IMG/VR virus record: IMGVR_UViG_2061766007_001136
DNA: 48,884 bases
Origin: an uncultured virus (IMG/VR IMGVR_UViG_2061766007_001136)
Lineage: Duplodnaviria > Heunggongvirae > Uroviricota > Caudoviricetes
Reading direction: 5' to 3' (one strand)
In this document: positions 2,274 to 48,884 of the stretch, piece by piece
Layout: every line of letters begins with the position of its first letter
Position numbering within the stretch: position 1 is the stretch's first letter
Position numbers and translations under genes: made by a program
Notes under the pieces: model-generated
Seen by the model: the letters and a program-made list of their open reading frames with translations, nothing else
Told to the model about the DNA's origin: nothing
The model's database searches: none

Positions 2274-2759
2274 CTAAAGCGTGAAGACTTCAGCATTTGG
2301 ATCAGCTTGCGTAGCCTGCACAGTAAGTTGAGATTGAGGCTGAGGCTGAGTTTCGGGTTCAGTCTTTTGAGGTGCTAAGTCGTTTAGCACACTCATGAAC
2401 TGAGCCTTAAGCAAAGCCTTCCTTTGAATGTCGGTAAGAGGTCTGCCCTTCTCACCGACAGTGATGTCTGCCTTAGTAGCTTGGTAGCCACAGTAGAGAG
2501 AATGTACAGTGACACCCTTCTCTACTAGGTCCTTGTTCTCTTGAAGCACATTAAGCACTTCAAGGGTACTGCGAACAGAAGACGTAATTGCGGCTACTTC
2601 TACTTGGTCACGAAGTTGGCTGAGTCCACCATGGAGAATGTCAGCACCAATCTCCACAGTCTCAGCTACTTCGTTCGCAATAGACTTTGCTGGTTTACGA
2701 AACCAGCAAAAGACGACAATAGCAATGAAGGCGCAAATGGTGAAGAGCGAGATATACAT
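2274..2759 (-). CDS. N-terminally anchored membrane protein (TM-FRKP type)
   Basis: MYISLFTICAFIAIVVFCWFRKP...; ACAGGAG RBS. Confidence 0.75.
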   Translation of the reverse strand: MYISLFTICAFIAIVVFCWFRKPAKSIANEVAETVEIGADILHGGLSQLRDQVEVAAITSSVRSTLEVLNVLQENKDLVEKGVTVHSLYCGYQATKADITVGEKGRPLTDIQRKALLKAQFMSVLNDLAPQKTEPETQPQPQSQLTVQATQADPNAEVFTL

Positions 2760-2782
2760 TTTAGTCTCCTGTATTGCTACAG

Positions 2783-3169
2783 TTACTTGCTAAGAGCTTC
2801 AATCATCTGATCAAGCTCATCTTCAGGCATCTGGACGCCTCTGAAGACGTTGTGGATGAACGCCTTCATCAGCTTCGTCCTCTTGTCCATGCGCTTGTCA
2901 TACTTGATAGAATCAGGGTTCTTAGGCTTGATGTTGTCACCCTTGCCTATGTGTGTCTCCTGTGCCTTACGGTCGTATTCCTTTTCGGCAACAGCCGATT
3001 CAACCAGTAAGCGTTGAGCTATGCGTTCCGTTACGAAGAGTGAGTGTCCATCAGGGCACACGATGGTGTAACCGACATTGTTGCTGTTGGTGGTCATGGT
3101 CATTTCCTCCTGAGGCTGAGTGTTAGTGGAAGTGGAGACAGTGGAAGAAGACTTACGAGAAGTAGACAT
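2783..3169 (-). CDS. hypothetical early protein
   Basis: 128-aa ORF with CAGGAGG RBS; a second in-frame start (MTMTTN) has its own GGAGG. Confidence 0.75.
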   Translation of the reverse strand: MSTSRKSSSTVSTSTNTQPQEEMTMTTNSNNVGYTIVCPDGHSLFVTERIAQRLLVESAVAEKEYDRKAQETHIGKGDNIKPKNPDSIKYDKRMDKRTKLMKAFIHNVFRGVQMPEDELDQMIEALSK

Positions 3170-3221
3170 AATACCCTCCTGTTGGGTAAATCCGTTAGAG
3201 CGTTATGCAGAATCCAAGTTG

Positions 3222-3274
3222 CCCTAGCCGTTAGACCCTAGGAATAATGACTGCTCCTAGGGTCGATGGTTAGG
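3222..3274. other. intergenic hairpin (terminator or processing site)
   Basis: GACCCTAGGA...TCCTAGGGTC stem with an imperfect outer stem. Confidence 0.45.
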
Positions 3275-3277
3275 CGA

Positions 3278-3844
3278 CTATTCGTAGTAAGTGTTGTGCA
3301 ACTTTGCTATTTCCTCAAGCAAAGCCACAAGACGTTCTCCCTTGTAACAGTACAAGGGAACCATAAGCTCCTTACCTTGATTAATTAAGTGAACTTCACC
3401 TATTTCCAGCTTCTGGCTAGGAGTAAACTTGACTGTCACACGGTCATGGCAATCTCTGATTATTTCAACAAGATCTCTTATAAGTTCATCAGGGTAATTT
3501 TCTAATGGAAGTTCTTGACGCAAAATCACTTCCTCGAAGAAATATTCTTCAAATTCGTAGACTAGGGTGTACACCTTATACTCGTGAGCTTCTCCAAAGT
3601 TCCAATCTTCCACAATAAATGTGTCAGATTCATACTCATCCCAGTTGTGATTGTACGAGCCATCTTCGTTATCTTGACGATACAAACGAATCATCTTTTC
3701 TCCGTTATTAGCAGTGATTACATATTCTCCATTCTCTTCTGAAATATTAGGCTTCATGTAAGGATAGATCTGCTGCAATGCCTTAGCCGCACAGATAGCG
3801 AGAACGGGAAGAGAGGAGCTGTTGAGACGAGACTGCATAGTCAT
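3278..3844 (-). CDS. first early gene, hypothetical acidic protein
   Basis: Likely start MTMQSRL at 3844 with ACAGGAGGT RBS at 3850-3858. Confidence 0.75.
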   Translation of the reverse strand: MTMQSRLNSSSLPVLAICAAKALQQIYPYMKPNISEENGEYVITANNGEKMIRLYRQDNEDGSYNHNWDEYESDTFIVEDWNFGEAHEYKVYTLVYEFEEYFFEEVILRQELPLENYPDELIRDLVEIIRDCHDRVTVKFTPSQKLEIGEVHLINQGKELMVPLYCYKGERLVALLEEIAKLHNTYYE

Positions 3845-4114
3845 GACGTACCTCCTGTGGTACAGAGGGCTAGAGCGTGAGACAGGGACAAGAGCCAACA
3901 GACACAGCACAGCCTAGACATGGCACAGCGTAGAGCCGTGCAGTGCATGCACAGTCCAGTATGCAGACTAGGCACCCCTTAGGGTCGCTTCTAGCGGTCC
4001 ATTCGGGGGGTGGTTTCAACTCTAGGGCCGAAACCGTGCTTGCAACACCTATAAAAAATATCGAGTATTCCCTACGGATTTTTTCTGGAATAAATTCAGT
4101 ACCTTGAAAGGACA

Positions 4115-4235
4115 TACCCTCAGATGCTTCGAGGATGGCTTCTGACGCATTCGAGGAGTACCATGATAAATCATAAGGGGAGACCCCTAGAAGCGTCTCA
4201 GAATCGATCCTGGAGGCATTTCAGGGCATGTGAGG
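4115..4235. repeat. dispersed periodic element 1 (strong-gyrase-site-like)
   Basis: Core ATGATAAATCATAAGGGG at 4163-4180, identical to 48271-48288; TCAG/TCGA/CTAG-type tetramers recur every 10-11 bp on both arms. Confidence 0.6.
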
Positions 4236-4300
4236 GGGAATGGAGAGGAGGAGATTGACTGAGGGGAAGGGAGGGGGATAGAGGAGGGAGTCTATGGAGG

Positions 4301-4543
4301 ATGAAAGGAATGAAAGAGGCAGAGTTGGTAGTAGACTATGTAGATAGTCTAGTAGATGTGTTTGAAGATGTAGGTATAAGTAATAGTCTAAGGTATGAAG
4401 ACGTGTATAGAATACAGCATGCGATTTTGAAGAGGCTTAGATGGATAAGAAAGCTTACAGGATCGGATGCAGTACAAGATGAAATTGATGAATTGGATAT
4501 GGCAGATCCTTATGATAGGAAATATCTTAGGATAGATGAATAA
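4301..4543 (+). CDS. hypothetical protein
   Basis: 80-aa ORF with G-rich RBS. Confidence 0.6.
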   Translation: MKGMKEAELVVDYVDSLVDVFEDVGISNSLRYEDVYRIQHAILKRLRWIRKLTGSDAVQDEIDELDMADPYDRKYLRIDE

Positions 4544-4639
4544 AATGAAAAGGCTCCCTAGGTAAAGGAGCAGAAACCCTAGAGAGCCTTGGCTAGCCAC
4601 GTTAGCTAGCCGAAGGAATAGAAAGGCAAAGGAGAGCAA

Positions 4640-5332
4640 ATGTCAAGACTGGAATTGGAGACTGTCAGGAAGCTGGTTCCTAAGAACCACAGAAGCATCA
4701 TTACTCAGGATTTTCTGGACAGAGTGGAAGGTGCAGTGGCTGATCCTGCTATGGCAGAGCAGTTTAAAGAGAATTTCATTAGCTACTTGGATGTCTTGAA
4801 GACAGGCAAGTACAAGATGGAAGACTATATCTCTGCTGTTAAGTATGTATCTTTTAAACTGCTGGGGTATACGAATAAGGATGCCTATGCAGCTACGTTT
4901 CCTGAGAGGTATGCTAGGCTTAAGAAGAGTGGTCAGGCTATAGATGCCTTTGTTGGAGCGTATAACAAGGGAAAATTAGTCAACCAGATCTATGAACAAA
5001 CATTGGTGCCTACTTGGGTGCTTAATGCTCCTCTTCATCAGGAGGCTTTAACTGAACTGGCTAGAATGATAAGAGATCCTTCTGTGAGAGGGATGTCTAA
5101 AGTCAAAGCCTGTGAAGCTATTCTTAACTATACTAAGCCACCTGAAGTGCAGAAAGCAGAGTTGAAGATAGGCGTAGACCAGCAGGATACCATTTCTGAA
5201 CTTAGGGAAGTTACTGAACAGCTAGCTTCAGCACTTCAGCAGTCTGTGAAGAATGGAGAATCACTGGTTAAAATAACTAACCAGAAGATCATAGATGTTA
5301 AGGCTGAACCTACGGAGGTAGAAAATGGATAA
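4640..5332 (+). CDS. N4 gp69-like conserved protein upstream of terminase (possible small terminase role)
   Basis: F-x-ENFISY...GKYK...Y...VKYVS.KL.G..N..AY...FP.RY pattern typical of the N4-like terminase-adjacent gene; synteny. Confidence 0.7.
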   Translation: MSRLELETVRKLVPKNHRSIITQDFLDRVEGAVADPAMAEQFKENFISYLDVLKTGKYKMEDYISAVKYVSFKLLGYTNKDAYAATFPERYARLKKSGQAIDAFVGAYNKGKLVNQIYEQTLVPTWVLNAPLHQEALTELARMIRDPSVRGMSKVKACEAILNYTKPPEVQKAELKIGVDQQDTISELREVTEQLASALQQSVKNGESLVKITNQKIIDVKAEPTEVENG

Positions 5333-24541: not shown

Positions 24542-27061
24542 ATGCCTTCCGGTGTTTCTTTTGAAAATCCCCAGGTTTACAACAATCCCCCGTCTACTGC
24601 GGGTTCCTATCCTCAGCTTATTCCTTTCTACTGGCAGAGGAAAGCTCTTATTGACCTTAAGAAGAAGCAGTACTTTGGTCAGTTAGCTGATACTGTTAGT
24701 ATGCCACGTCATTTCGGCAAAACCATTAAGCGTTATCACTACATTCCTCTGCTTGATGACCGTAACATTAACGATCAGGGCATTGACGCTACTGGTGCCA
24801 CTACTACCGATGAAGTGACCATCACCATCACTGACCCTGCTGGTGCTTCTAGGTATGCCGTTGGCAATGGTGCTTCTGCTGCAGCTGCTCTTACTGCCGC
24901 TAAGGCCAAGGCTGTTGACATCTTCAAGAACATTGGTGCTTTTACTACTGACTACGCCACTACCAAGGCTGCTCTTGTTGCCGCTGACTGGACTATCACT
25001 GAAGGTTCTGCCGTCAATAGCTCCGGCAACCTTTACGGCTCTTCCAAGGACGTTGGCACCATCACTGGCAAGCTTCCTGCCATCTCTGAAACTGGTGGTC
25101 GAGTNNNNNNNNNNCTAATCCAGGTTCCTATCCTCAGCTTATTCCTTTCTACTGGCAGAGGAAGGCTCTCATTGATCTTAAGAAGAAGCAGTACTTCGGT
25201 CAGTTAGCTGATACTGTTTCCATGCCGAAGCATTTCGGTAAGACAATTAAGCGTTATCATTACATTCCGCTTCTGGATGATCGCAACATCAACGATCAGG
25301 GCATTGACGCCACTGGTTCCGTTGTGGCTGATGAAGTTACCATCACCATTACTGATCCTCAGGGTGCCTCTAGGTACGCTGTGGGCAATGGCGTTAATGC
25401 GGCTGGTGCTTTAACTGCCGCTCAAGCCAAGGCTGNNNNNNNNNNTAACCGTGTGGGCTTCACTAGGCTGACTCTTGAAGCTAGCATCAGCAACTTCGGC
25501 TTCTTCGATGAATACACGGAAGACTCCGTGAACTTCGACAACGAATCCGACCTGATGCAGCACATCAGCCGTGAAACTCTCCGTGCCGCTAACGAGATTG
25601 TCGAGGACATGATCCAGATCGACCTTCTCAACGGTGCTAACGTGGTCTTCTACGGTGGTGCTGCTACTAGCACTGCTGAGCTTACTGGCGAAACTGGCTC
25701 TACTGCTTCGGTGCTGGACTACGACACTCTCGTTCGCGTTGAAGAGGCTCTTAACGACAACCTCTGTCCTACCGACACCAAGATCATCACTGGCTCTAGG
25801 ATGACCGACACCAAGACTGTCGGTGCTACCCGCTATGCCTACGTTGGTGCTGAACTGAAGCGCAATCTTCTCAAGATGGTTGACTACCATAACGAGAAGG
25901 CTTTCGTTCCGATTCAGCAGTACGGTGCTGCCGGTACCTTAGCCTCTGGCGAGATTGGTGCCATTGGTGGTTTCCGTTTCATTGAAGTTCCCAAGATGCT
26001 CCACTGGGATGGTGCTGGTGCTTCTGTCTCCAACAATGGTGGCTACATGGAGTCTGGTGGCAAGTACAACGTGTATCCTCTTCTGGTTGTCGGTTCTGGT
26101 TCCTTCACAACCATCGGCTTCCAGACTGACGGCGAGAACACGAAGTTCAAGATCCTCCACAAGGCTCCTGGCTCTGCTATGGCCTCTAGGAACGATCCNN
26201 NNNNNNNNNNNNNNNNNNNNGCCTCGCTGCCTAGTGATAGACAGCAGATAACCTCCTTAATTGCTGGGAACTCTCATTGAGACAATCAGCAGCCAAGCTT
26301 TCATGATTGAAAGAAGGTTCATCGACTATCCCGACAGGGAGTACACTCAAGCGAGTGGAAATGGGAGGCTCTCCTAACTGGAGATGAAGATATAGTCAGG
26401 ACTGCATAGCGATATGCAGCAGTAAGTTGACAAGATGGTATGGTTAAGGCATTCTCATTAAAACTTCGAGGAGGAAGTTATGAGAATAGCAAGCATACCA
26501 AACTACCCAAACTACCAAATCTACGATGACGGTTCTGTTATCAATATTAAATCTAAAAAGAAGTTAGCTACGCAACCTAACACAAGAGGCTATCTTACAG
26601 TAAATCTCTGGAAAGAAAATAAACTTAAGAAAATGTTGGTCCATAGGTTAGTAGCAGAAAATTTTATAGAAAATCCTCATAATTTACCCTGTGTAAATCA
26701 TATAGATAAGAATAAGCAGAACAATAGTGTAGATAACTTGGAGTGGTGCTCTTATAAAGAAAATAGCCGATATAGCTTACGCGAAATGCGAGATGCTAGA
26801 GAAGCTCTTCCACATAAGATACCAGTTAAAACCTTTAGAAATGGTGAATGGAAAATCTACAAATCTATTTCTNNNNNNNNNNNNNNNNNNNNNNNNNNNN
26901 NNNNNNNNNNNNNNNNNNNNNNNNNNNNNNNNNNNNNGAAATTTGGGAATATGTCAACTAACGGGAATAGTTTAGCGAACTATTCTGAACAGATTGGGTA
27001 CGGAACAATGATCCTTCGCCCCGAATGGATCGCCTTAGTTAAAGTAGTTGCCGAACGTTAG
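24542..27061 (+). CDS. major capsid protein, N4 gp56 family; intron-split, with an assembly-duplicated 5' allele
   Basis: YFGQLAD...[49 protein letters not shown]; exon 2 (W)[15 protein letters not shown] at 26997-27061. Confidence 0.93.
26221..26996 (+). ncRNA. group I intron (subgroup IA) in the major capsid gene; 5' splice site in gap 26199-26220
   Basis: P3 CCTCCT 26252/GGGAGG 26363; P4 TTGCTG/CAGCAG; P7 GACTAT 26324/ATAGTC 26392; P7.1 and P7.2 hairpins; P8; P9; terminal G 26996 followed by GG-TAC-GGA, restoring W-Y-G. Confidence 0.9.
26480..26961 (+). CDS. intron-encoded NUMOD4-HNH homing endonuclease (I-HmuI-like)
   Basis: [39 protein letters not shown]; after the gap it ends EIWEYVN*. 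Confidence 0.88.
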
Positions 27062-28765: not shown

Positions 28766-31700
28766 ATGGGTGGTGGATGGAGTCCATTTGAAATAATTGG
28801 AAGCATATTTGCAGGTGTAATAGGTGTTCTTAGCGGNNNNNNNNNNNNNNNNNNNCATAGGTGGTATGCTCGCTATTAGCACCGTTGAAGGCATAGCTAC
28901 TGGACGCATGTTCAAAAGCTTTGGAGCGTTTCTATTTGAACCACTACGACTAGTATGCTCACTTCTAGGCATTACAGACCAGAATGTTACTCAGGGCTTC
29001 ATGACTGCTTCCAAGGTATTTCATGAAAATCAGTATCCAGATACCTTAGTAGCTGCATGCATAGCTAGAAACAAAGACGGTACAGACCTTCCCAAGTACT
29101 ACTACGACTTCTGCAAGGTAGGCACTGCACAGTTCGATAAATNNNNNNNNNNNNNNNNNNNNNNNNNNNNNNNNNNNNNNNNNNNNNNNNNNNNNNNNNN
29201 NNNNNNNNNNNNNNNNNNNNNNNNNNNNNNNNNNNNNNNNNNNNNNNNNNNNNNNNNNNNNNNNNNNNNNNNNNNNNNNNNNNNNNNNNNNNNNNNNNNN
29301 NNNNNNNNNNNNNNNNNNNNNNNNNNNNNNNNNNNNNNNNNNNNNNNNNNNNNNNNNNNNNNNNNNNNNNNNNNNNNNNNNNNNNNNNNNNNNNNNNNNN
29401 NNNNNNNNNNNNNNNNNNNNNNNNNNNNNNNNNNNNNNNNNNNNNNNNNNNNNNNNNNNNNNNNNNNNNNNNNNNNNNNNNNNNNNNNNNNNNNNNNNNN
29501 NNNNNNNNNNNNNNNNNNNNNNNNNNNNNNNNNNNNNNNNNNNNNNNNNNNNNNNNNNNNNNNNNNNNNNNNNNNNNNNNNNNNNNNNNNNNNNNNNNNN
29601 NNNNNNNNNNNNNNNNNNNNNNNNNNNNNNNNNNNNNNNNNNNNNNNNNNNNNNNNNNNNNNNNNNNNNNNNNNNNNNNNNNNNNNNNNNNNNNNNNNNN
29701 NNNNNNNNNNNNTTTGACCTGTCCTGATCTGTACAGTGTATGTCAGGATCAGATTGATAGGAACAANNNNNNNNNNTCTCTGCCATGCTTCCTGTAAAGC
29801 CAATAGCGGAAACTGAAAGGGACGGAAGCCCTTGCATCTTCCGTCCCTAGGGGNNNNNNNNNNGAACCGTGTGGGCTTCACTAGGCTGACTCTTGAAGCT
29901 AGCATCAGCAACTTNNNNNNNNNNTACACCGTACTACGTTGTCTGACTTAGGTGTAGACTTCACAGATGATGACTTAGGCAAGATGGTTAAAGGAAATAT
30001 TAACTGTCTACCTGTAGCTTGTCTTAGAAATAACAAAGTAGATTTAAAGGATGCAGCTAATAACGGTAATGTTTCTGCATCCTTTAGGCATCCTAAGAGA
30101 TATAAGCAAACAAAGAAGCTGTTGAAAGGCATAGGATTAGACATAGAAGAGTTAACTAAAGGGTATCATGAAAATGGAAGCGTCAATGATGTCTATGACG
30201 TGTACTTAATGGCAGGTACCAGTCCTNNNNNNNNNNGATCCTGAAGGTAATCCTTTTTCAGTAGAAGTTACTGCTAAGTATGTATATAAGACTATAGAAG
30301 GTATTTATGAGAATCTTCCGTGTGCAGTAGCTGGTCAACCATATTTCTTTACCTTTAAAGAACCTCCATTAAAAGGTCAGATAGTATGGGCAGGAGTACC
30401 TACAGATGAAATAACTGGTAAGAAGTGTAAGTNNNNNNNNNNNNNNNNNNNNNNNNNNNNNNNNNNTGTATTAACTTATAGGGTTATTCTTCAGGTATTA
30501 ACAGAATATCTAGGTTACGAAGATAGATATAATCAGGGATATGATAGCGATGGTATTGGCTATATAAGTTCTACATCTTCTAGATATTTTAGATATAAAG
30601 CTGAATATGTATCTGTGGATGTTGACTCACTGCCTGTCACTCCTGCTAAAATCTATGAAGCCCTAGACAATAGAACCCCGTTCTTTCCTGATAGAACGTC
30701 TTCTAATGAAGTATGGGCTAATCAAGACAGTATAGGTGATTCATGGAGTGATCAGGGTGTTACTACAGGTCAAGCACCAGAAGCACAGCCTGAATTTCCC
30801 GATATAGCTGAAATACCTTTAGAATGGCCTTACAATAATGTTAATACACCCCCATACACTGGAAATCCTCCGTGGTATCGTATTCTTAGAGCTAAGCGTA
30901 CTGTCAGCTATAGTCATGATTCTGATTCTTATAGCAGTTCTGTAACCTATCTTTATGAAGACTTAGCCTCTAAACCTTATTACACTGATTTAGAACCTAA
31001 TAATCCAGATTATAATTACCAACCTGGATATACTTTTGGTGAACAATCTACTCCTGAATATTATACACCTTACGAAGAACCCGCTTCTTTAATTCTCTAT
31101 TNNNNNNNNNNNNNNNNNNNNNNNNNNNNGTTTATTCTACTGATACAGTAGATCAAGGATTACTAGATACTGCTAGAGTAACAGACAGTAAATTTGTATT
31201 TCCTATAGTCTATGCAGGATTAAAAGCATTAACAGTATACGATAAAACAAAGCTTCTTAGTGAAGGATTTTACATGCTTTTCTTTGCTAAGAAGACTCAG
31301 CATTTAGAGTTCTATGAGACTGCAGCATTTGGTACTTTTCTACAAATAGTAGGTGTAGTTATTACCATAGTAGTATCTATCTTTACTATGGGTTCTCAGA
31401 CTATGACTGTACAGATGGCTATACAGGCATTGATTAAAATGGCTGTAGTCTATGTAGGTGTTACCCTAGCTTTAAAGATTATTTCAGCAGTAGTTCCTGA
31501 TTCTACCATGAAGGCAATACTGTCTGCTGTAGTTTNNNNNNNNNNNNNNNNNNNNNNNNNNNNNNNNNNNNNNNNNNNNNNNNNAGTACAGCTAGCTGAA
31601 ATACCCTCTAAAGTAATAGATATATACACTAAAGATCAGATGAGACTTGCACAGCAGGATATGGCTGACCTTCAGTCTAGGTACAAATCTGCTAAGGAAC

Positions 31701-33103: not shown

Positions 33104-33222
33104 CATGCCCGTAGAGGCCACTAGAATGCCCTGTAATCGATTGGAAGGGGGTACCCTGTATGATTTGTCATCCTGACCCAAAACAGAGCCTCAGATCGGC
33201 TCTGAGACGTTTTTCGAGGAAA
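33095..33222. repeat. dispersed periodic element 6 (strong-gyrase-site-like), intergenic
   Basis: CTAG 33100, GTAG 33111, CTAG 33121, CTGT 33131; core GTATGATTTGTCATCC; TCAG 33191, CTGA 33202, TCGA 33214. Confidence 0.65.
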
Positions 33223-38400: not shown

Positions 38401-41400
38401 CTAAGTTTAGTGAACAGGGTAAAAAGAATATGCAAGCAGCTTTAGATAGGGTTATTGATTTTAATAATACTATTAAAGCTGATAGAGAAACTTCTCTTAA
38501 AGAAAGAGAACGTGGTCTTACTAATTTAGATAAACTGCTTAAAGAAAATACTTTAGAGAAGATTCGTGAAAACACTATTGATGAAGCTAAAGACAGTACT
38601 GAAACTAAGCAAAAGAAACTTAATACGTTAACAAATCTCTTAGCTGCATTTACTGCTGTACAGAGACATTTCCATACTATTTCTGATACTAGTCCTGAAG
38701 ATATAAAACGTAGTAAAGAATTAGCTGAACGTAGAAATGAAATACTTGCTCTTAGAGGTAATGCNNNNNNNNNNNNNNNNNNNTAAACAGCAGGAAGCTT
38801 TAAGCACTACTCGTAAGATTAAATCAGAAGATTTAACTCAAGATACCAATGCCTATATAGATAAATTATCTAGAATAAAAAGTAATAAGCAACTTGATAA
38901 AAATTTAGCAGATATNNNNNNNNNNNNNNNNNNNNNNNNNNNNNNTTAGCTAACAAAGATGCTAAAGCCGCAAACAATGCCATAGCTAAATGGCAGGCTA
39001 CTGTCAGCCGCATGGAAGAGCTTGGCTTCAAGCTTCCTAGAGTTGTTTCTGAAATGAAGGAGAAGCTTGCCAAGCAGAAGGCTGAAGAGCAGGCAAAGGC
39101 ATCCGAAAACNNNNNNNNNNNNNNNGAGCCCGTCTAAGGCATCTGAAGCCTCTGGACAGGAAAACATACAAGGAAAGCCTGCAAGTGCCTCAGAGACCCC
39201 TTCAAACGCGCAGAATGGGCATATGGAGGGAAAGGTTCAGGAGCAGTCCCAGACAGAGGCTGAAGACAAGGCTCTCAGAGACTTCACGGAAAAGTACCGC
39301 GAAGGTCTGAGAAAGGCAGGCATGACCGACGAACAGGCAGAAGCCNNNNNNNNNNNNNNNNNNNNNNNNNNNNNNNNTTTGGGCTGACTCCTAAGGAATA
39401 CCTTGAAAAATCTCTTGAAGGTTACGAAAAAATTAAGTTAGATGATTTTAATAATCTTAGTGATGAAGCGTATAATGAGTTATTTACTACTTCTTTATAT
39501 CAACAAGATGAAAATAATAATGTTAAAGGTGCTTTTAGTGTTGGTACACGTTCAGGTAAATATAAGGGTAAAGGAATTGTACAAATTTTTGAAGATGGTG
39601 ATGTTAGTACAGCGTTACACGAAACTAGTCATTACTTCTTAGAAAGTGTTAGAGCTGCACTAAGAAANNNNNNNNNNNNNNNNNNNNNNNNNNNNNNNTT
39701 GGAGTAAATTAGAAAAGATTTATGGATTTTCTGGTTTATTAGAAAAAGAAGAAGAATGGGATGAATACGATAGAGTTCATGAAAGATTTGCTAGAGACTT
39801 TGAAGCTTACATGCGTGAAGGTAAAGCTCCTAAGAAGGAACTTCAAACTATCTTCGACAAGTGTAAGCAATGGCTTACTGAAATCTATAAATCTATAAAA
39901 AGTCTTTTAGGTAATGATAAATTATCTCCTGAAATAAAAGAAGTTTTTGATGCTCTTCTTACGAATGAAAGTATAGGTAAGCCTTCTACCCAAGCTACTT
40001 CTACGAATACTGCTACTCAACCTTCTGCTACACCTGTTACTCGTACTAGTGACGGTGATGTTTATTTAAGTGATCAGGTTATAGCTAATACACGAAAAGC
40101 TAATTTAACCAGATTAAATTCTCTTAAAGAAANNNNNNNNNNNNNNNNNNNNNNNNNNNNNNNNNNNNNNNNNNNNNNNNNNNNNNNNNNNNNNNNNNNN
40201 NNNTAGAAAAAGTGGTGAATATAGTGATGAAAGAATTTCTGAGTTAAAAGAGCAAGCTAAAGCACCTAGTACACCTACAGAAGCTAACGATGCTGTAGCT
40301 GCTAGAGCTAAGAATACTTTTCAAAGTAAGCAAGCTGAACGCTTAGGGGTTAAGCAAGAAGAAAGAACTAGTAGTGCTGATAACGAGGAAGCATTAGCTA
40401 ATTCTGATGAGAATCCTAATCAGAAGAAAGAAGAAGTTCCTGCATCTTCTCAGACAAAGCTTCTGCTTGATTCTGAACGTCTTATATTCAAGATTCAAGA
40501 AAGATATAAAAAAGGTGAAGTTAGGTCTGACGAAAGCGATTATCTTGATCCTACAGATCAGGTAAGAGCAGGCATGCCTGACTGTATGGTCACGCTAGAT
40601 CCTTCTCTTTACTTTAATACGCATATTCTAGGAGCTACTACACGTCATCAGGATTTCTTAAGAATGCTTGATGAGATGCAGTTCTCTCCTCATGCTATCC
40701 ATACGACTACGACTGGAGAAAATATTCCTGATCCTATGGCGTACATAACGACTAGGCAGAAGGAAGAAGGTCTTAGCCAGTCTTCTATGATAGGCAATGC
40801 TCCTCATTGGCTATTTCTCTATGATGTTGATCCTGATCATCCGTTACAGCCTAAAAATCGTAAAGAGAATAAAGGTAAGAATATAGCTACTAATTTAGCT
40901 TATTGGAAACCTAATAGGCTTACCTTTATGATAGTTGACTACTCTTTAAGAGAGTTCTTTGGAACCACTAGCTATGAACAATATTTTGCTTATGGAAAGC
41001 TTCCTCATAAAGATGAAATAGCAAGCATGTTTGGTCTTAGTGCTGATAAATTATCTTTTGAAGAACTTGAACAGTTGCAAGGATTAATTAAACAGCATGG
41101 TATTCCTAGGTCTATGCTTGCTGAGATGATTGGTAGACTTATAGTTAAGAATCTCGGTCTTAAAGAAAAATTTGAGANNNNNNNNNNNNNNNNNNNNNNN
41201 NNNNNNTTGGTTCATTTGCTTTAGACTGGGGTGCTAAACAAGGGTTATACAATTTTACTACGTTTGATGTTGATGCTTGGTATCTTGATAACTTATCTGC
41301 TATTATGAGCGGTGAATCACTTGTTGATGTTAAACGTAGTGAAGCTAATAANNNNNNNNNNNNNNNNNNNNNNNNNNNNNNNNNNNNNNNNNAACAGCAA

Positions 41401-44400
41401 TCTCGTAGAACAAATCTTTTACGAGTTTTAGATAATGCTTTATCTGCTGTTAATAAAGATAATAAAACAGTAGTTAATAATAAACATGTTGCTGTATTTG
41501 ATGAAAAAACAGTAAAAGCTATTGTTAGATACATAGAAAAAGGTGATACAGGACATGTTTTAAATAACAGCATTGATTGTATAAAAGTAAATCCAGAACA
41601 AACTGAAAAGCTACAGTATATTAAAACTGAATTCAGAGGTTCTTTAGATGAGAAAACAGGAAGAATCAGAGACGATGGTCTAGTTCAATTAAAAACACCT
41701 AAATCTCGATCTTCTGCTCAACCTAGATGGGATAAACCTACAATTTATAGCTTATATAATACTGCTGTTAGAAACACTGGTGGAAAAGTACTTGCTAGTC
41801 CGTTTAGGGTTCTTGCAATGCAGGAACTTTCCAACTGTGCTTATCAGGTGGATACCGATGCCATAGAATTTTTAAATGAGGAAATTACTGATCCTAAAGA
41901 TCCTACCAAAAAGATAAAATTATGGGATACTGTTGGTAGACTTCATGGATGGCAAACTCAAGAAGATATAGATAAACTTAGTTATAGTGGTCAGCTAAGT
42001 GCTGAAGGTGTTAATGTCTCTATTCAAAATGATATAGCCTATATCAGAGATGCTTTAGCTACTCAGACTGACATGATTAAAGAAGGTACCTTTAAAGGTA
42101 TGTTCTTTGATTTCTTTCTTGCTAGAAACGGTCGTATAAACAATGCTTCTACCACCATTAACCAGCAAAGCAGTAAGTTAGCTCGATTTATGGTTCTCCC
42201 TAGAGGAGTTTGGAGAATATTTAATCCTAAAGATGAAAAACAAATAGCTTTTGAAAACTATGCTATTACTCAAGCTTTTGATCTTCAGGGTAGTGATAAA
42301 GAAGAACTCACTAAAAATGCCGAAAAGCTAAAAAGTTTTAGTAAAGAAAAATTACTTAGATTAAGATACTTACTTTGTACAAATACTACGGATCAATTTA
42401 AACAAGCTACAAAAGATGAATTCGATATTGAAATAGGTGTTGAGAATTTTGCTCAATGTCTTAATGCTTTATCTCATCTTCTTAAAAGAGTTGAAGCGAA
42501 TGGGGAATCTTTTACTACTTCGTTAGCAGTAGAAAATGACTCCACTACATCTGGCTATGCTAATAAAGCTCTTAATATGCCTTATGAAGAAACTTTAACT
42601 ACTACGGATAAAGGTGGACAATCTACTATTGCTAGTAAAGTAGGCATTCATATAATTCCTAAGGATAAAGTAGGTACAGTTACTCAAGCTACAATTACTG
42701 CACATGAGTCTAAAAAGTTTCTTCCCTCTGTTCTATTAGAAGATGCTGAAGCTAAAGTTAAAAATTTAGACATGTACAGAACTGTTGCTCTTGAAGTTTC
42801 TAACGAATTGTCTAAATGCGTTGATAAAGATGGTAATGTTACTAATGCTAAGAAACTTGGAGAAATCTTTGCTAAAAGCTTAGCACCATCCTTTGGTAAA
42901 CAAAGTGGTAGCATGGATAAAGCTATCAAAGAGTTAATTGATATTTTTAGAATNNNNNNNNNNNNNNNNNNNNNNNNNNNNNNNNNNNNNNNNNNNNCTG
43001 TTGAAGGTGAAGTCAGCACTGAGTTAAGAACTATGATGAAAGATCCTACAATGGTCTTTATCTATTCTGCTGGTGTTAACACTATGGCTAAAAATGTAGC
43101 TAATAAGATTATGGAAAATTTCTTAAGTACTTATGTAGCTGCAAAGNNNNNNNNNNNNNNNNACCGATAAAGATAAAGCATCTTACGATGCTATTATGAA
43201 AACTATTGATAAAATAGCTACTAACTTTGTACCTGATCAAAATAATCCTACTGAAACGTTTATAGAAGCTTTAAAAACTAGACCTTATTCTAGTATTCGA
43301 GTTAATCAGGCAGGAAGGCATATTACTTTAGATACATTATTTAATCGTCTTATCGGTTCTACCTATGGTCAACCTGCTGCTGAAACACTTAAAAACTTAT
43401 TTGAAAATTTTGTTAAAGCTAATGATGACTTCATTCAAATGACTTCTATGATGTTTGAATTATATAATGAGGTTTATACTGAAGAATTAGCTACTCTTAG
43501 AACTACTAAAGGTATTGTTACTAAAAATGAGATTAAAAGTGCTGCAGTCAGAGAAATGGAAGAACGCATATCTGATATGCTACCTTACATTACTCTTCCT
43601 GATAATATTCATCGTGCAGGTAAAGATAGCTCTAAGCTTCTTATGATAAAATCAGCGAAGAGCATGAACAAAACTAACAAAGCTCAGAACTATCTTTTAG
43701 ATAAAAACGGTCAACTTATACAAGGAACATCCGCTTATGGTGCTAGCAGAGTTCCTGATAGTCCCGGTAGGTCTGGTGCTGTTCTAGGTATTCATGGAAT
43801 AGATGGTCACATCATTTCTATGATTGCAGCTAAATACGCTAGAGAAGGTATTGCCGTAATTCATGATGCATATGTGTCTTCTGCTTTTGTACACGAAGAA
43901 ATTANNNNNNNNNNNNNNNNNNNNNNACTATAATCTCTATGGAAATGTTTTAGAAAACTTTAAACGTGTGTATGATAATTATATCGACTATAGAGTAAAC
44001 CAAGCTCTACAAGCTGATTTCAACCCTGATGCGTATCCTGACAAGCAAACTATGCGTGAAGCTAGAAGAAGATTTAAAGCTGAAGTTAGAGAAAGCATTG
44101 AATCAGCTTTGCGTGATAGAGCTGTAAAAGGTGGTAATAAAGAAACTATATATGTTACTAGAAACGTACCACTTACTTTAGGTACTCTTTTAGATAACTG
44201 CATAGAAGCTAATCAGAAAATATTAGAAGCTAAAGATTGGTTAAGTAAGCAATATTTCATGGTTACAAACATGGATTCTGCTAGACCTGAAGGTGCTGCT
44301 TTAATAACTCCTGATTCTGTATTTAGCTACGAACAATCATTTCATAATATTGTAAACGATGCTAGAAACTGGACTACTGCTGATATGCATGGTTCACATC

Positions 44401-47400
44401 CTGATGGATTCGTATCTTCAGGTATGCTTCACACGATCTATGAACAAGCTTTGAATGATACTGAAGCTAGAGTTCAAAGTTTAAATTATCTTAGAGAAGT
44501 AAGTAGAGCTAAAGGTGAAAGAAATGTAAGTGATGAACATTTTAGTTATCTGCAAGATATTATAAGATCGATAGCATACGATAAAAATATGAATACTATT
44601 TTAGAACTTGCAGATAACGGTTTATATACTGCTGGTCAGGTAGAAATAAGTAATAACTCTAGCAAGATTTCTATTGCTTTAGGGAGTAAAGATAACGGTA
44701 TTGTTTTAGATCCTATCACTGGGCTATCTGCTTGTTCCTACATGTCTCCAGTAGAAATTATAGCTCATGAAATGATGCACATAGCTAATGATTACGCTTT
44801 TAAACACCGTAATGACTTTAAAATAAATCATCTTATTAATAAGCTTCTTAGAAATAGAGAAGAAGCTGCTAAGATCATTACTCCTGAAGATTTTATGCCT
44901 CCTGAAGGTTCTTATGATAAATCTTTAGAGGATACTTATAAAAAGATTGCTGAAGATAGATGGCATTATTACTTTGATAACGATAATTCTGAAAATCTTG
45001 AAAGTCTAAATGAATACTGTGCTTTTATAGCAACTAACGAAGAAGTTAGAAACCGTCNNNNNNNNNNNNNNNNNNNNAAATACAAAAACCTTAGTTTCTT
45101 AGATAAGCTCATTAAAATAGCTAAAGATATTTATGATGTCGTATTTGGTCCTAAGACATTTAAAGAAGCATATAATCATGCCTATGAAGTTCTTAAAGGT
45201 AATGCTTCTATTAGACAGAGATCTTTACTAGAAGATTTTGATACTCTTACAGCTAAAATGCGTGCTATTCAGTTTAAAACTAGAAATAGACTTTTAGAGC
45301 ATCCTATGCGTTGGGTAGAGTGTCTGTTCAGTATTGCAGGACAAGCAATTCATTGGGGTGATAAACATTTACATGATTTACTATATAAAGCTTTTAACTA
45401 TTCAGATCTTCATGGTGGCCCTAGGTATGATCTCATAGAAAACATACCTTTATATGCAACTACTGGTCAGAAACTTAAACAATCTGCACAAATTGCTAAA
45501 TACTTCTTTACTAGTGGTGAACAAAGACGTTTAGCTAAGACTATTTTTACTGATACTATGAAGCTACATCAGCAAGGAATCTTTTTATCTACTATGAGAG
45601 ACTTCTTTGCTCCTGATGAAGATACTGCAATGCTTGAATCACTAGGTCTTAGACTTAGATCTGTTGATAGATCTTCTAAAGNNNNNNNNNNNNNNNNTGA
45701 ATTAAGAGAAGCCTTTGGTAAAGAGTTAAACGATTTTGAAAATACAGCTTTAACAAACTGTGCATTATACACAGATTTACAGTGCTGCATGGACTACGGA
45801 CTATCTACTATAAGGAAATGGTTAGCTGATAATGATGCTATTGATATAGAAATAGATAAACTTAAAAAATCTTTAGTAGGTGGCTATAATAAAAACCAAC
45901 TTAACTGGATTTACAATCAGATAAATAACTTAGCATCTTTTATGGTTTATCATGTTGGTAATCCTGGGATGAACTATAATGCAGAAAATATTGTTAAAGG
46001 TTTAGGCTATCAAGGTACTATTAAAATTAATGAAGATCATACAGATATTATTGATAAACTTATTACTCTTACAGCTTTAAGACATACTGATCAAAGGTAT
46101 AGAGATGTAGTCAATACTCTTAATNNNNNNNNNNNNNNNNNACTCATAAAAACTTTGTAAATGAGTCTAAAAACGGTATTAAGACTGACTATGAAGAAGG
46201 TAATGATACTAGGTATTCTTTCATGAATCCTAGTCATGTTATTAAAGGTTACACTAAACAGTTATTAGATCCTAACTTAGAGCTTCAGGTAGCTGTTACA
46301 GATCCTACAGATCCTAATAAGTTATACAACCAAGGATATAAACTTATTCAAAGCCTTAAACCTAATGCTGTAACTAATCGTTCTGGTGTAGGTCTTTATA
46401 CCCGCTTTGGACTTCCTCTTCATACAGATGGAGCTATTGTAAGTCTTCAAGGTTCAAAAACTCTTGGACAGTCTCTTCGTAAATTAGCTTGGCAAATGTC
46501 TGATCAGTATCCTGACGTTATTCCTGATTCTAGTAAACTATTTACTGTTTATCGTACAGAAGGTGATAAGCAATTTATTGCTATTAATAAGTTAATGGCG
46601 AATAAAGAACTTTCATTTGAAGATTGTGCTAAGCTTCATGAAAAATATTCAGGCTATATTCCTCAACCTAGCATTAGTGCTGATACTATGCCTTCTGACT
46701 ATAATATTACTGTACCTAGGGAATTGAAGCGTTCACAGCTAGGTTTAGATGAAAGAGCTTTAACTATTCTTAGTAAAATGTATGGTAGTGTTACTAGACA
46801 AGTTAATGGTACTTTAGCTAATAACGTATTATTACAATTCTTAAGACAACAGGAANNNNNNNNNNNNNNNNNNNNNNNNNNNNNNNNNNNNNNNNNNNNN
46901 NNNNNNNNNNNNNNNNNNNNNNNNNNNNNNNNNNNNNNNNNNNNNNNNNNNNNNNNNNNNNNNNNNNNNNNNNNNNNNNNNNNNNNNNNNNNNNNNNNNN
47001 NNNNNNNNNNNNNNNNNNNNNNNATTCCTAGTCATTGGCTTAAACGCTGTATTGCTTTAGCTGAAATGATTATGAAGACTGTTGCATATTACCGTAAGCA
47101 AAATATTGTTATTAGAATTCCTGGAGTACTTTTAGGTAATATTATTTCTAACANNNNNNNNNNNNNNNNNNNNNNNNNTTAAAAGTCTTCAAACATACTT
47201 TAGCTAATGCTCAAGCTATTAGAGACTATCTTGATACTAAAAAAGAACAAAATCGTATTCTTCTTAAACGTAGACTAGGTACTGCTACAGAAGCTGAAAT
47301 AGCTAAAGCTAACAGACTTCAAGATAGACTTAACAATAATATTGTAGCTCCTCTTATGAAGAAAGGCATGTACCNNNNNNNNNNNNNNNNNNNNNNNNNN

Positions 47401-48048
47401 NNNNNNTCCTGATGAGTTAGAATCTATTGGCCTTATCAATAAATTTGTTAAGAAAAATAAAGCTATGCAAAAGTTGCCTAATGCTCTTAAGTGGACTGCT
47501 AAGCAACTTTACATGACTGAAGGAACTCCTATCTATGATTTCATGTTTACTGCTACTCAGTATTCAGATTTTATAGCTAGAGCTACNNNNNNNNNNNNNN
47601 NNNNNNNNNAGTACCTACTGAATATAACGATGCTGTTAAAGAAGGTACTCTTCAGCTTAACAAAAAGACTAAAAAGCTTGAAACTAAAGAAGAATTTACA
47701 AAGAGACGTGAACGTGAAATATCTACAGCTATTACTAATGCTTTTATTAACTACGATAAACCACAGTCTCAAGCTGAACAGTATCTTAACGATTTAGGTG
47801 TATTAATGTTTACTAAATTTGCTAAGCGTATTCAGCATGTCATAGGCAGACAGTTATACCATAAGCCTGTTTCAGCTATTTTATTCTTACTGTCTCAACA
47901 TTTCTTAGTGGATACAGAAGATATTTTAGAACAGAACGTGTTTAGCAAGCACTGGTCAGCATTAGTTCATAATCCTATAGAGAACTTTTTAAATACTGTA
48001 GTGCCTATGCCTATACAGTTCATTTTTGGAGACCAGAAGGTCTTGTAG
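35462..48048 (+). CDS. giant virion-encapsidated RNA polymerase (N4 gp50-like), ~4,200 codons, fragmented only by N gaps
   Basis: Single-subunit RNAP motifs ARNGRI, VENDSTTSG (D 42538), R-TMM-K-DPTMVFI-Y (43027-43065), IHGIDG and VIHDA (43865); N4-like C-terminus QYSDF, FINY, YL.DLG; all breaks coincide with gaps. Confidence 0.85.
39126..39225. repeat. dispersed periodic element 7 (strong-gyrase-site-like), inside the vRNAP gene
   Basis: GC-rich island in an AT-rich gene: CTAA 39134, CTGA 39143, CTGG 39152 / TCAG 39190, TCAA 39202, CAG 39211. Confidence 0.5.
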
Positions 48049-48091
48049 GAAGGGAGAGCGATTAGTAGGATAATTAGGCAGGATTGATGAT

Positions 48092-48137
48092 AAAAATAGC
48101 CCCTAGAGACCGCTCCAGATCTCTAGGGGCTTTGTTT
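48092..48137. terminator. bidirectional terminator ending the late module
   Basis: AAAAAT-AGCCCCTAGAGA...TCTCTAGGGGCT-TTGTTT. Confidence 0.75.
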
Positions 48138-48224
48138 GGCACATCCGTCAAGGACACCTACTACTCTGTGTTAAGGGTTGTGCCATGCTTCGGGAGAGGA
48201 CTGTCATCACTCAGCCCTGCACCC

Positions 48225-48315
48225 GAAATAAGGAGCCTAGGAGCCTTTCTGAGGCACTTCTAGGCAGAGAATGATAAATCATAAGGGGAACCTTCAGAAA
48301 TGTCTTAGAATGGAT
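48225..48315. repeat. dispersed periodic element 8 (strong-gyrase-site-like)
   Basis: CTAG 48237, CTGA 48249, CTAG 48260; core ATGATAAATCATAAGGGG at 48271-48288; TCAG 48294, TTAG 48305. Confidence 0.6.
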
Positions 48316-48353
48316 NNNNNNNNNNNNNNNNNNNNNNNNNNNNNNAAAATACT

Positions 48354-48884
48354 GGGCTGGAGAGGCAGTGGGAAGGCTTCTCCAGCCCTTTTACCGATCT
48401 ATGGAGTTTCTTATGGAAACTGCTGGTTCCGTTGCACCTAGTCCTGCTAGAAGTCAGTGCAGGGGTCTACACGGTTTCCTGGTAGCGGAAACTGAAAGGG
48501 ACGGAAGCCCTTGCATCTTCCGTCCCTAGGGGCAGTGGAGGGACTGCCCCGAACCACAGGAGGTTCATGCACCCGTTGTACACCTGTCTCAAGAGGAAAA
48601 ACACGACGCAAAACCTCTAGAGCCTACACGGTATGCTGGTAGCAGAATTTCCATGGTTTCTCCGACACCATGTAAACGGGACTACTCGCACTTCCTACGT
48701 CTAGGAGGCTTTCATGCTCGAAGAATGGCTATCCCGCATGGAGTTGCACCATGTCTAAGCCTTTCGTCCAAGTCTAAGCTTGTCCATAATACTACTTAGC
48801 TCCTCTGTCTGCAGTAAACGGGATAATGAAATTTGAAGGAGGTTTCTGCGAACTCCTCCACAAACGCAGCAGAGTAACCTAGGA
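48354..48884. ncRNA. candidate structured non-coding RNA array (continues beyond window)
   Basis: No ORF of 60 aa or more; more than 10 hairpins; repeated motifs at ~140-157-nt spacing. Confidence 0.5.

Follow-up and report, generated by a model that had tools for sequence, protein, structure and literature searches.

Large RNAs encoded in the tRNA islands of bacteriophages, of which GOLLD and ROOL are the best-matched examples for the present case, fold into striking assemblies, and to our knowledge neither has a known function. The tRNA gene cluster of phage T4 encodes small stable RNAs that are not tRNAs and are presumably released from a common precursor; we know of no function for these either. 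Among regulators of translation, RsaE/RoxS-type regulatory RNAs of the Firmicutes carry C-rich loops, and CsrB/RsmZ-type sponges are rich in GGA. Here we analyze positions 48354-48884 of a viral contig from IMG/VR (IMGVR_UViG_2061766007_001136; 48,884 nucleotides [nt], hereafter the window), a segment downstream of the vRNAP gene that an initial annotation, made from the sequence alone, had described as a tandem array of diverged structured RNA units. The evidence inclines us, by a modest degree, to the reading that this stretch is the greater part of a ~1-kb modular noncoding RNA locus of a phage tRNA island; that it is noncoding and structured at the RNA level is itself likely.

According to the part of the report used here, GOLLD is phage-borne, lies near tRNA genes, sometimes holds tRNAs in an internal linker and has a conserved 3' region (bioRxiv 10.1101/2024.12.08.627333). 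ROOL, as described in the excerpt of its report on which we rely, was discovered in the cow rumen, occurs in phages and prophages near tRNAs, spans several hundred nt and combines multistem junctions with pseudoknots, amounting to six junctions and three pseudoknots (PMC5737381). As far as these partial sources describe the two RNAs, the locus analyzed here resembles GOLLD (RF01998) in its phage setting, its richness in hairpins and pseudoknot, and its internal slot with zero to two tRNA genes. It differs in that the covariance model does not match at E<=10 and in that the conserved part lies 5' on the tRNA strand, rather than 3' as in GOLLD. Set beside GOLLD, conservation here splits at the slot (97.7% in the core versus 64-96% in the left part), and the locus, whose transcription as a single RNA is hypothetical, is known in only two sequence types. 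With ROOL (RF03087), within the same limits of the source, the locus has in common the cow rumen, the phage context and the proximity to tRNAs. Its core measures ~450 nt with one supported pseudoknot; the ROOL covariance model does not match, and the six junctions and three pseudoknots have no counterpart among the features found here. Since the context is common but the covariance models fail, we file the locus as working like the GOLLD/ROOL kind and not as a member of it.

The likeness to the T4 tRNA-cluster RNAs, as folded non-tRNA RNAs among phage tRNA genes, is one of description only: those RNAs are much smaller, and T4 is unrelated to this phage. Read on the minus strand, the locus recalls RsaE/RoxS, with C-rich loops (CCCUCC and CCUCCUGU) that could pair with Shine-Dalgarno sequences, and read on the plus strand it recalls CsrB/RsmZ, with GGA and GGAGG enriched. 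It has no Rfam match to either type and is several times longer, and only one of seven GGAG sites is predicted to be exposed on plus. The locus presents the context of GOLLD and ROOL without their sequence, together with natural variation of zero, one or two tRNAs at one slot.

The island and its tRNA slot

A protein-guided search with the last 145 amino acids (aa) of vRNAP as query returned one locus in a collection of viral contigs (L001, 51% identity), which lacks the island, six loci in metagenome contigs (L009-L014) and none in genome contigs. The island was found only in L009, whose vRNAP is 88% identical to that of the window at the amino acid level. Window positions 48050-48494 correspond to L009 666-1109 (83.6% identity) and 48481-48884 to L009 1273-1676 (95.3%), and the order vRNAP, terminator T1, island is common to both. 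A chimaeric assembly was rejected, the junctions being the same in this independent contig. One short run of N lies inside the island, the right end of which falls outside the window; L009 shows ~50 nt more, up to a terminator (T2), beyond which a converging minus-strand DUF669 gene ends at L009 1828, in the position of the first converging minus-strand gene of L001. Because L009 continues into T2 and DUF669, we take the full island to be ~1 kb long and to lie between the terminators of two converging operons. It runs from ~48138 past the window end and is therefore larger than the 48354-48884 first delimited.

The G+C content of the island is 0.49-0.52, compared to 0.27-0.36 in the preceding 8 kb (the vRNAP gene). 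As stated in the initial annotation, more than 500 nt pass without a substantial open reading frame (ORF): over 48084-48884 the longest on either strand has 59 aa, and from 48138 to the window end ~56 aa. Nine island ORFs had no family in Pfam. Comparison of the window with L009 also left no conserved ORF, the frames being separated by the tRNA insert, by one TAG/TGG change and by a frameshift; on both counts the noncoding character of the stretch is borne out.

The features of the island are the following (window coordinates unless L009 is named; a strand is given where one is assigned):

48098..48131, both strands: T1, a two-way intrinsic terminator with a 14-bp stem and T-runs ATTTTTATCA on minus and TTTGTTTGG on plus; it closes vRNAP and forms the left island border
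48138..48315: left module, an intergenic repeat with the palindrome ATGATAAATCAT (48271-48282), followed by a short N run
48354..48388: hairpin HA, with a 13-bp stem and a 9-nt loop, followed by TTTT on plus; invariant in L009
48403..48494: unit A, with GGAG-N6-ATG, a variable hairpin (48432-48462) and copy 1 of a motif hairpin (48467-48485)
48482..48494, minus: tRNA-cassette slot, marked by a single 13-mer GTAGCGGAAACTG, which in L009 forms two imperfect direct repeats flanking tRNA-Ser and tRNA-Thr
48497..48527: hairpin HB, with an 11-bp perfect stem and a 9-nt loop, followed on minus by TTTCAGTTT, ~20 nt upstream of the tRNA slot
48529..48550 (within 48529..48566): hairpin HC, GGGGCAGT/ACTGCCCC with loop GGAGGG
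48551..48566 (within 48529..48566): hairpin h3, GAACC/GGTTC with loop ACAGGA
48567..48703: unit B, with a candidate closing stem (48573-48582/48672-48680), hairpins 48588-48596/48614-48622 and 48653-48658/48667-48672, and copy 2 of the motif hairpin (48624-48642)
48704..48837: unit C, with GGAGG-N5-ATG, a hairpin (48736-48741/48749-48754), two copies of GTCTAAGC and a candidate closing stem (48730-48736/48818-48824)
48834..48869: H-type pseudoknot, stem 1 GGAGG 48838-48842/CCTCC 48855-48859, stem 2 CTGCG 48846-48850/CGCAG 48865-48869
48870..48884: island tail, extending beyond the window
L009 1737-1774, minus: T2 terminator, a hairpin with a 12-bp stem, then AATTTTTT on minus

T1 is identical in L009 (714-747). 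Palindromes of the CCTAGG and CCCTAGGGG types are a repeated element of the stems in T1, HB/HC, T2 and the left module (48099-48110, 48231-48246, 48522-48533; L009 1737-1774).

The L009 island carries a 168-nt insert, absent from the window, with a tRNA-Ser(UGA) and a tRNA-Thr(UGU) gene (1108-1196 and 1199-1275; ARAGORN and Rfam), both on the minus strand and both with an encoded CCA. Since the same island carries two minus-strand tRNA genes in this relative, we regard the locus as a tRNA-island locus. We also compared Logan contigs of four sequencing runs (X1, X3, X4 and X15) with L009: the X1 and X3 contigs have the empty junction of the window, and the X4 contig keeps tRNA-Thr and skips tRNA-Ser. 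It follows from the empty junctions of the window, X1 and X3, the one gene of X4 and the two of L009 that the slot takes zero, one or two tRNA genes according to strain. ARAGORN found no tRNA in the whole window, and RF00005 had no match at E<=10 in 47900-48884 or in 29700-29960, on which grounds tRNA pseudogenes were rejected. A correspondence of the region to tRNAs, considered in the initial annotation, is therefore found in the L009 island, with its two minus-strand genes, but not in the window.

The vRNAP-end junction is a recurrent landing place for tRNA genes in this clade, because L010 (a relative at 50% identity) also carries tRNAs there: the DNA that follows its vRNAP gene, at 2669-4127, is an AT-rich island holding two small ORFs and, on the minus strand, genes for tRNA-Lys and tRNA-Ile. 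As a counterpart of the present island it was rejected, having no comparable module.

A second copy of the slot-plus-HB segment lies at 29804..29853, inside the structural gene block, and is identical to 48483-48532 at 50 of 50 positions (E 1e-20). Weaker similarity continues to its right; to its left, a 15-mer matches, in reverse complement, the 5' end of the L009 tRNA-Ser, the whole segment spanning 29777-29853. Around it, 29714-29938 has stops in all three plus frames and lies between two structural-block ORFs in surroundings that are mostly N; it may be an insertion, an intron or a tRNA cassette. Rfam gave no match on the unmasked part of this site, and no relatives of the protein beside the copy were found.

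Rfam 15 was scanned with cmscan under permissive filters (E<=10, both strands) over window positions 47900-48884 and L009 690-1790. No GOLLD, ROOL, HEARO, riboswitch, ribozyme, intron or tRNA match fell in the window's island, and the scan of the window gave only spurious hairpin matches on T1; the island is absent from Rfam at this threshold. As candidates, the group I intron (RF00028), riboswitch and ribozyme families were rejected for want of an island match; the same search finds an intron at 26144-26419. Neither the island nor the end of vRNAP had a blastn match among 50,697 phage records. Three motif scans of the viral contigs yielded 7, 3 and 0 loci, every one of which blastn showed to be a coincidental or coding match, and a two-motif gapped pattern yielded 111 stretches in genome contigs, with only tRNA-like similarity among the loci examined by blastn. 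Literature listings on large structured RNAs, phage tRNA islands and N4-like or rumen vRNAP contained no paper about such an element in N4-like or rumen phages. What stands of the undescribed phage RNA array proposed initially is a phage-borne, noncoding, structured element that has no Rfam family and is better conserved than the flanking genes; the array does not stand. Similarly, of the GOLLD/ROOL-class alternative named at the same time, the rumen, the phage and the tRNA genes inside the island of relatives are all found, but membership is not, with no RF01998 or RF03087 match.

These results bear on whether the island could be transcribed as one giant RNA of ~0.85-1.0 kb of the GOLLD/ROOL kind, in which two domains would be joined by the tRNA slot as a linker and tRNAs would perhaps be covalently attached. 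The phage, tRNA-island, linker-tRNA and rumen context, as given for GOLLD and ROOL in the parts of the reports used here, is in keeping with such an RNA, as are the borders set by T1 and T2 with the tRNAs inside. We nevertheless consider it unlikely: neither RF01998, RF03087 nor any other family matches the window or L009 at E<=10; tRNA processing would halve the molecule in strains that have tRNAs; the slot marks a change in both conservation and base composition, and HB, just before it, is terminator-like; and no long-range pairs between the halves survive comparison.

The stems reported at 48354-48388, 48497-48527, 48529-48550 and 48551-48566 are all present, and three long candidate closing stems are present as sequence, invariant or slightly weakened in L009. 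The motif hairpin noted at 48467 and 48624 was also recovered, as part of a 24-nt block that matches at 21/24 positions, with two differences in the tetraloop and one outside the hairpin, and GTAAACGGGA is indeed repeated at 48672 and 48814. In addition, 17-mers containing GTCTAAGC occur at 48749 and 48768. The tandem arrangement itself was not upheld, since TRF (minimum score 30) gives only an 8-nt repeat in two copies; nor are the units similar, with only the 24-nt and 10-nt blocks in common. Units A and B have only the 24-nt block in common (z 8.5; reached by 0/300 shuffles), units B and C only the 10-mer (reached by 12/300), and units A and C nothing beyond chance (88/300). The motifs sit at similar offsets within the units (64/66 and 114/111), which makes a loosely periodic architecture possible; common descent of the units is unsupported. 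On the reading preferred here, the locus is a chain of folded modules and not a repeat array, and one rigid RNA is unlikely. A 15-nt sequence, AGGAGGNNTTCATGC, has 3 matches at <=2 mismatches versus 1.1 expected and was rejected as a signal used across the genome.

Conservation and compensatory changes

The noncoding core of the island is the best-conserved DNA of its neighborhood. Between the window and L009, vRNAP coding DNA is identical at 379/440 positions (86%), with 38 of 57 differences at third codon positions. On the left side of the slot, identity is 163/178 (92%) over 48138-48315, 46/48 (96%) over 48346-48393 and 47/73 (64%) over 48394-48466; in the core it is 299/306 (97.7%) over 48495-48800, with 98/100 in the part of unit C at 48701-48800, followed by 75/84 (89%) over 48801-48884. 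By sequence comparison, the left part (48138-48494) is a moderately conserved region with a hypervariable hairpin tip, and the ~450-nt core, from 48495 to ~50 nt past the window end, is a near-invariant one, in which HB, HC, h3, two multi-hairpin domains and the pseudoknot are predicted.

The contigs of the four runs give a similar picture. Compared to L009, the core differs at 8/309 positions in X1, 8/348 in X3, 4/312 in X4 and 9/225 in X15, contigs of the vRNAP end at 89/730 and 80/641, contigs of the DUF669 gene at 34/554, 81/542, 66/380 and 31/165, and contigs of the left half at 33/374 and 38/382. HB is invariant in L009, and none of the 42 differences listed out of 412 for these runs falls in it. 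Because the core is at least 96% identical in contigs from four studies, variants for covariation or expression work would be easy to obtain; parts of the stretch occur in 20 run rows from 14 studies. Of these rows, X1, X3, X4 and X15 were compared; the others, among them five RNA runs with shares of 0.09-0.14, do not count here as evidence for habitat or expression. The conservation of the core fits selection on the nucleotide sequence.

The same locus could be conceived as a mosaic of selectively neutral DNA, made up of spacers of the tRNA island and remnants of tiny genes, that looks conserved through recent exchange among rumen phages. The spacing of the GGAG-ATG motifs, 134-156 nt, equals the size of a phage gene of ~45 aa, and in L009 an open 45-aa frame crosses unit B and ends at the next GGAGG, with a stop in the window and in the four runs. 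Moreover, the tRNA content of the slot varies, one 50-nt piece has a duplicate elsewhere in the genome, and five relatives are without the island. This explanation is nonetheless rather improbable, as the core is the best-conserved part locally in the contigs of the four runs, with both flanks differing by 6-15%, paired changes keep stems, G+C and folding energy exceed those of surroundings and shuffles, and the four differences in unit B are without third-position bias.

The claim that the region is structured was confirmed insofar as it folds better than sequences shuffled with dinucleotide content kept. On either strand, the 538 nt to the right of the internal N run beat 100 of 100 such shuffles (plus, z -3.78; minus, z -2.86), and parts of the island gave z from -1.6 to -4.3 in the window and L009, the left module (48138-48315) scoring -2.1 on plus and -1.6 on minus. 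The H-type pseudoknot suggested at 48838-48869 gained support from compensatory changes in L009 and in an X3 contig. In L009, G48848->A and C48867->T convert stem 2 from CTGCG/CGCAG to CTACG/CGTAG; in one X3 contig end, stem 1 (GGAGG/CCTCC) is swapped for another complementary pair and the CTGCG loop is kept. In the tip of the variable hairpin, 48438/48453, 48439/48452 and 48442/48449 change on both sides in L009 and stay paired, and its base (48432-48437/48457-48462) is invariant. An A-A mismatch at 48591/48619 in the window is a C-G pair in L009. We consider the local hairpins and the pseudoknot credible on this comparison, which does not uphold the predicted global fold.

These paired changes also speak to the idea of an element acting as DNA, such as a replication origin, a set of protein-binding sites or a buffer zone for converging transcription. 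The island does sit exactly where two gene arms converge, with the skew changing sign at the slot, and it holds short repeats (24-nt and 10-nt blocks and GTCTAAGC, two copies each) as well as a palindrome common to other intergenic regions. However, the island lacks both an AT-rich unwinding region and an iteron array, the compensatory changes keep intrastrand pairing, which duplex sites would not need, and close relatives manage convergence with a single terminator: in L001, L011 and L013, vRNAP is followed by a short gap with at most one terminator and then by converging minus-strand genes. We judge a DNA-level element very unlikely.

Start-site-like motifs, strand and possible function

The GGAG(G) sequences reported at 48403, 48559, 48704 and 48838 are present, with additional sites at 48359, 48537 and 48740, and an ATG follows not only the first three, as described, but also 48740. 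On the plus strand, GGAG occurs seven times versus 2.1 expected, GGAGG four times versus 0.5 expected, and CCTCC once; GGA occurs 17 times versus 8.6 expected (p 0.003). The combination GGAG-N3-10-ATG is found four times on plus versus 0.25 expected (0/2000 shuffles) and once on the opposite strand. The genes of this phage themselves have ribosome sites of the GGAG type. Read on minus, the GGAG-ATG motifs of the island become CAU-N3-7-CUCC, in four copies, and the loops of HC and h3 would expose CCCUCC and CCUCCUGU (unpaired probability 1.0 and 0.75). In the partition-function fold, four of seven CUCC sites on minus, those in the HC and h3 loops among them, have an unpaired probability above 0.6, compared to one of seven GGAG sites on plus. 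These motif statistics allow a link to translation initiation.

Taken at face value, the four ribosome-site-plus-ATG motifs could start plus-strand micro-genes for peptides of 8-38 aa, and the strong enrichment of the motif on plus, with spacing as in the phage's own genes, is what such genes would show. Peptide lengths and sequences differ, however, between the window and L009: the unit A frame is shifted in L009 and enters the antisense of the tRNAs, and the unit B frame has 17 aa in the window and the four compared runs versus 45 aa in L009, its four differences showing no bias to third codon positions. With no Pfam match and a nucleotide identity far above the needs of short peptides, micro-genes are the explanation to which we give hardly any credence.

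Several observations point to the minus strand for the core. Its minimum free energy (MFE) is -138.7 on minus versus -128.4 on plus in the window, and -163.7 versus -146.2 in L009 (z -3.36 versus -1.91). The minus strand of the core is rich in G+U, T2 has the form of a terminator only on minus, as HB weakly does, a sub-stem of HB in L009 was flagged as terminator-like on minus, and the L009 tRNAs are on this strand. Placement of the core on minus is, from these predictions, somewhat the better supported choice. MFE and z-scores (for the whole region and per part), two-sequence alifold, base composition and G-U counts gave conflicting strand answers. The earlier proposal that G-U pairs favor plus holds for the left part but not for the core, where energy and composition favor minus. 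The base skew changes sign at the slot, and the two halves may be transcribed in opposite directions. In the RNA run X15, one contig of 225 nt covers part of the core and others fall on the DUF669 gene, with none on the vRNAP part or the left half (depth 3-5); being unstranded, and with DNA carry-over possible, these contigs are evidence neither of transcription nor of silence.

Under the modular RNA-locus reading, the core would be transcribed on minus, as the tRNAs are, giving an RNA of ~450 nt that would start after T2 and end at, or be cut near, HB, upstream of the slot. It would be made together with whatever tRNAs occupy the slot and could serve the phage's takeover of translation. The CCUCC loops and the four CAU-N3-7-CUCC motifs, complementary to a Shine-Dalgarno sequence plus AUG, could pair with mRNA start sites; in the mirror reading, on the plus strand, the same motifs would be decoy start sites for 30S subunits. 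An anti-start-site mechanism is tentative and, in our estimate, doubtful. If the locus is an RNA, the start-site-like motifs would offer a testable hypothesis linking such RNAs to translation initiation.

A number of observations weigh against this reading of the locus. With respect to strand, the energy asymmetry reflects base composition, because it is also seen in shuffles; G-T pairs (C-A on minus) in both copies of the motif hairpin, in HA (one) and at 48736/48754 favor plus; the left half folds better on plus; and two variants of hairpin HC point to opposite strands. With respect to folding, the z-scores are moderate and alike on both strands, and in the whole-region MFE structures over 48346-48884 the L009 changes break 13 pairs and keep 8 on plus, and break 13 and keep 9 on minus. 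For the minus strand of L009, folding predicts a long-range helix of 10 bp that the window sequence breaks up. The full sequences number only two and are near-identical in the core, such that covariation amounts to ~4 pairs plus one contig end. Recent segment exchange between phages could produce the same conservation picture, and five other relatives found with the vRNAP C-terminus are without the island. As for expression, a promoter search identified no promoter, only one weak sigma-70-like site versus 0.8-1.0 expected, and the run comparison consists of contigs only.

A more ambitious proposal is that the island represents a new large-RNA class that is common in cattle-gut N4-like phages, in which two domains, a docking linker for tRNA cassettes and start-signal mimics or antisense sequences would together capture 30S subunits or mask host starts while delivering tRNAs. 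We regard this as improbable; if true, it would add a third member of the GOLLD/ROOL kind, unrelated in sequence and with a readable functional clue.

Phage context of the island

PHROG scans of the window identified terminase, portal protein, major head protein, tail fibres, endolysin and vRNAP pieces, with all of these genes on the plus strand. Because of this content, the contig, which comes from the cattle gut, is by predicted gene functions an N4-like podophage. The vRNAP pieces (phrog_2206) span ~41.3-48.0 kb, the breaks in the frame fall at N runs, and the stop codon is at 48046-48048. In the window (41305-48048), as in L001, L011 and L013, vRNAP is oriented like the structural genes and runs toward replication-type genes of the opposite orientation. 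In coliphage N4, vRNAP is co-oriented with the early and middle genes.

The intron found in the same Rfam search is a group I intron (RF00028; 26144-26419, plus; 70.3 bits, E 6.5e-16) at the end of the major head protein ORF. ORFs at this site occupy 25222-26280 and 26480-27061, and an HNH endonuclease ORF (phrog_59) comes after the intron. Judged from the predicted genes, the two look like a self-splicing intron accompanied by a homing endonuclease, located within the capsid gene or behind it.

Near the left end, 3910-4640 is a divergent region between minus-strand left-end genes and plus-strand late genes; it is rich in G, GGGGGAATGGAGAGGAGGAG being an example of its runs, and may be a control region or an end of the genome. 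It also contains one copy of a ~70-nt intergenic repeat, which occurs at 4140-4208, 33150-33202 (reverse) and 48247-48315, the last within the left module of the island, and consists of the palindrome ATGATAAATCAT followed by AAGGGGA. The palindrome cores start at 4163, 33160 and 48271, and the palindrome has 6 matches at <=1 mismatch versus 0.46 expected. The copies at 48247-48315 and 4140-4208 are 77% alike, and the repeat may be a phage operator or promoter element.

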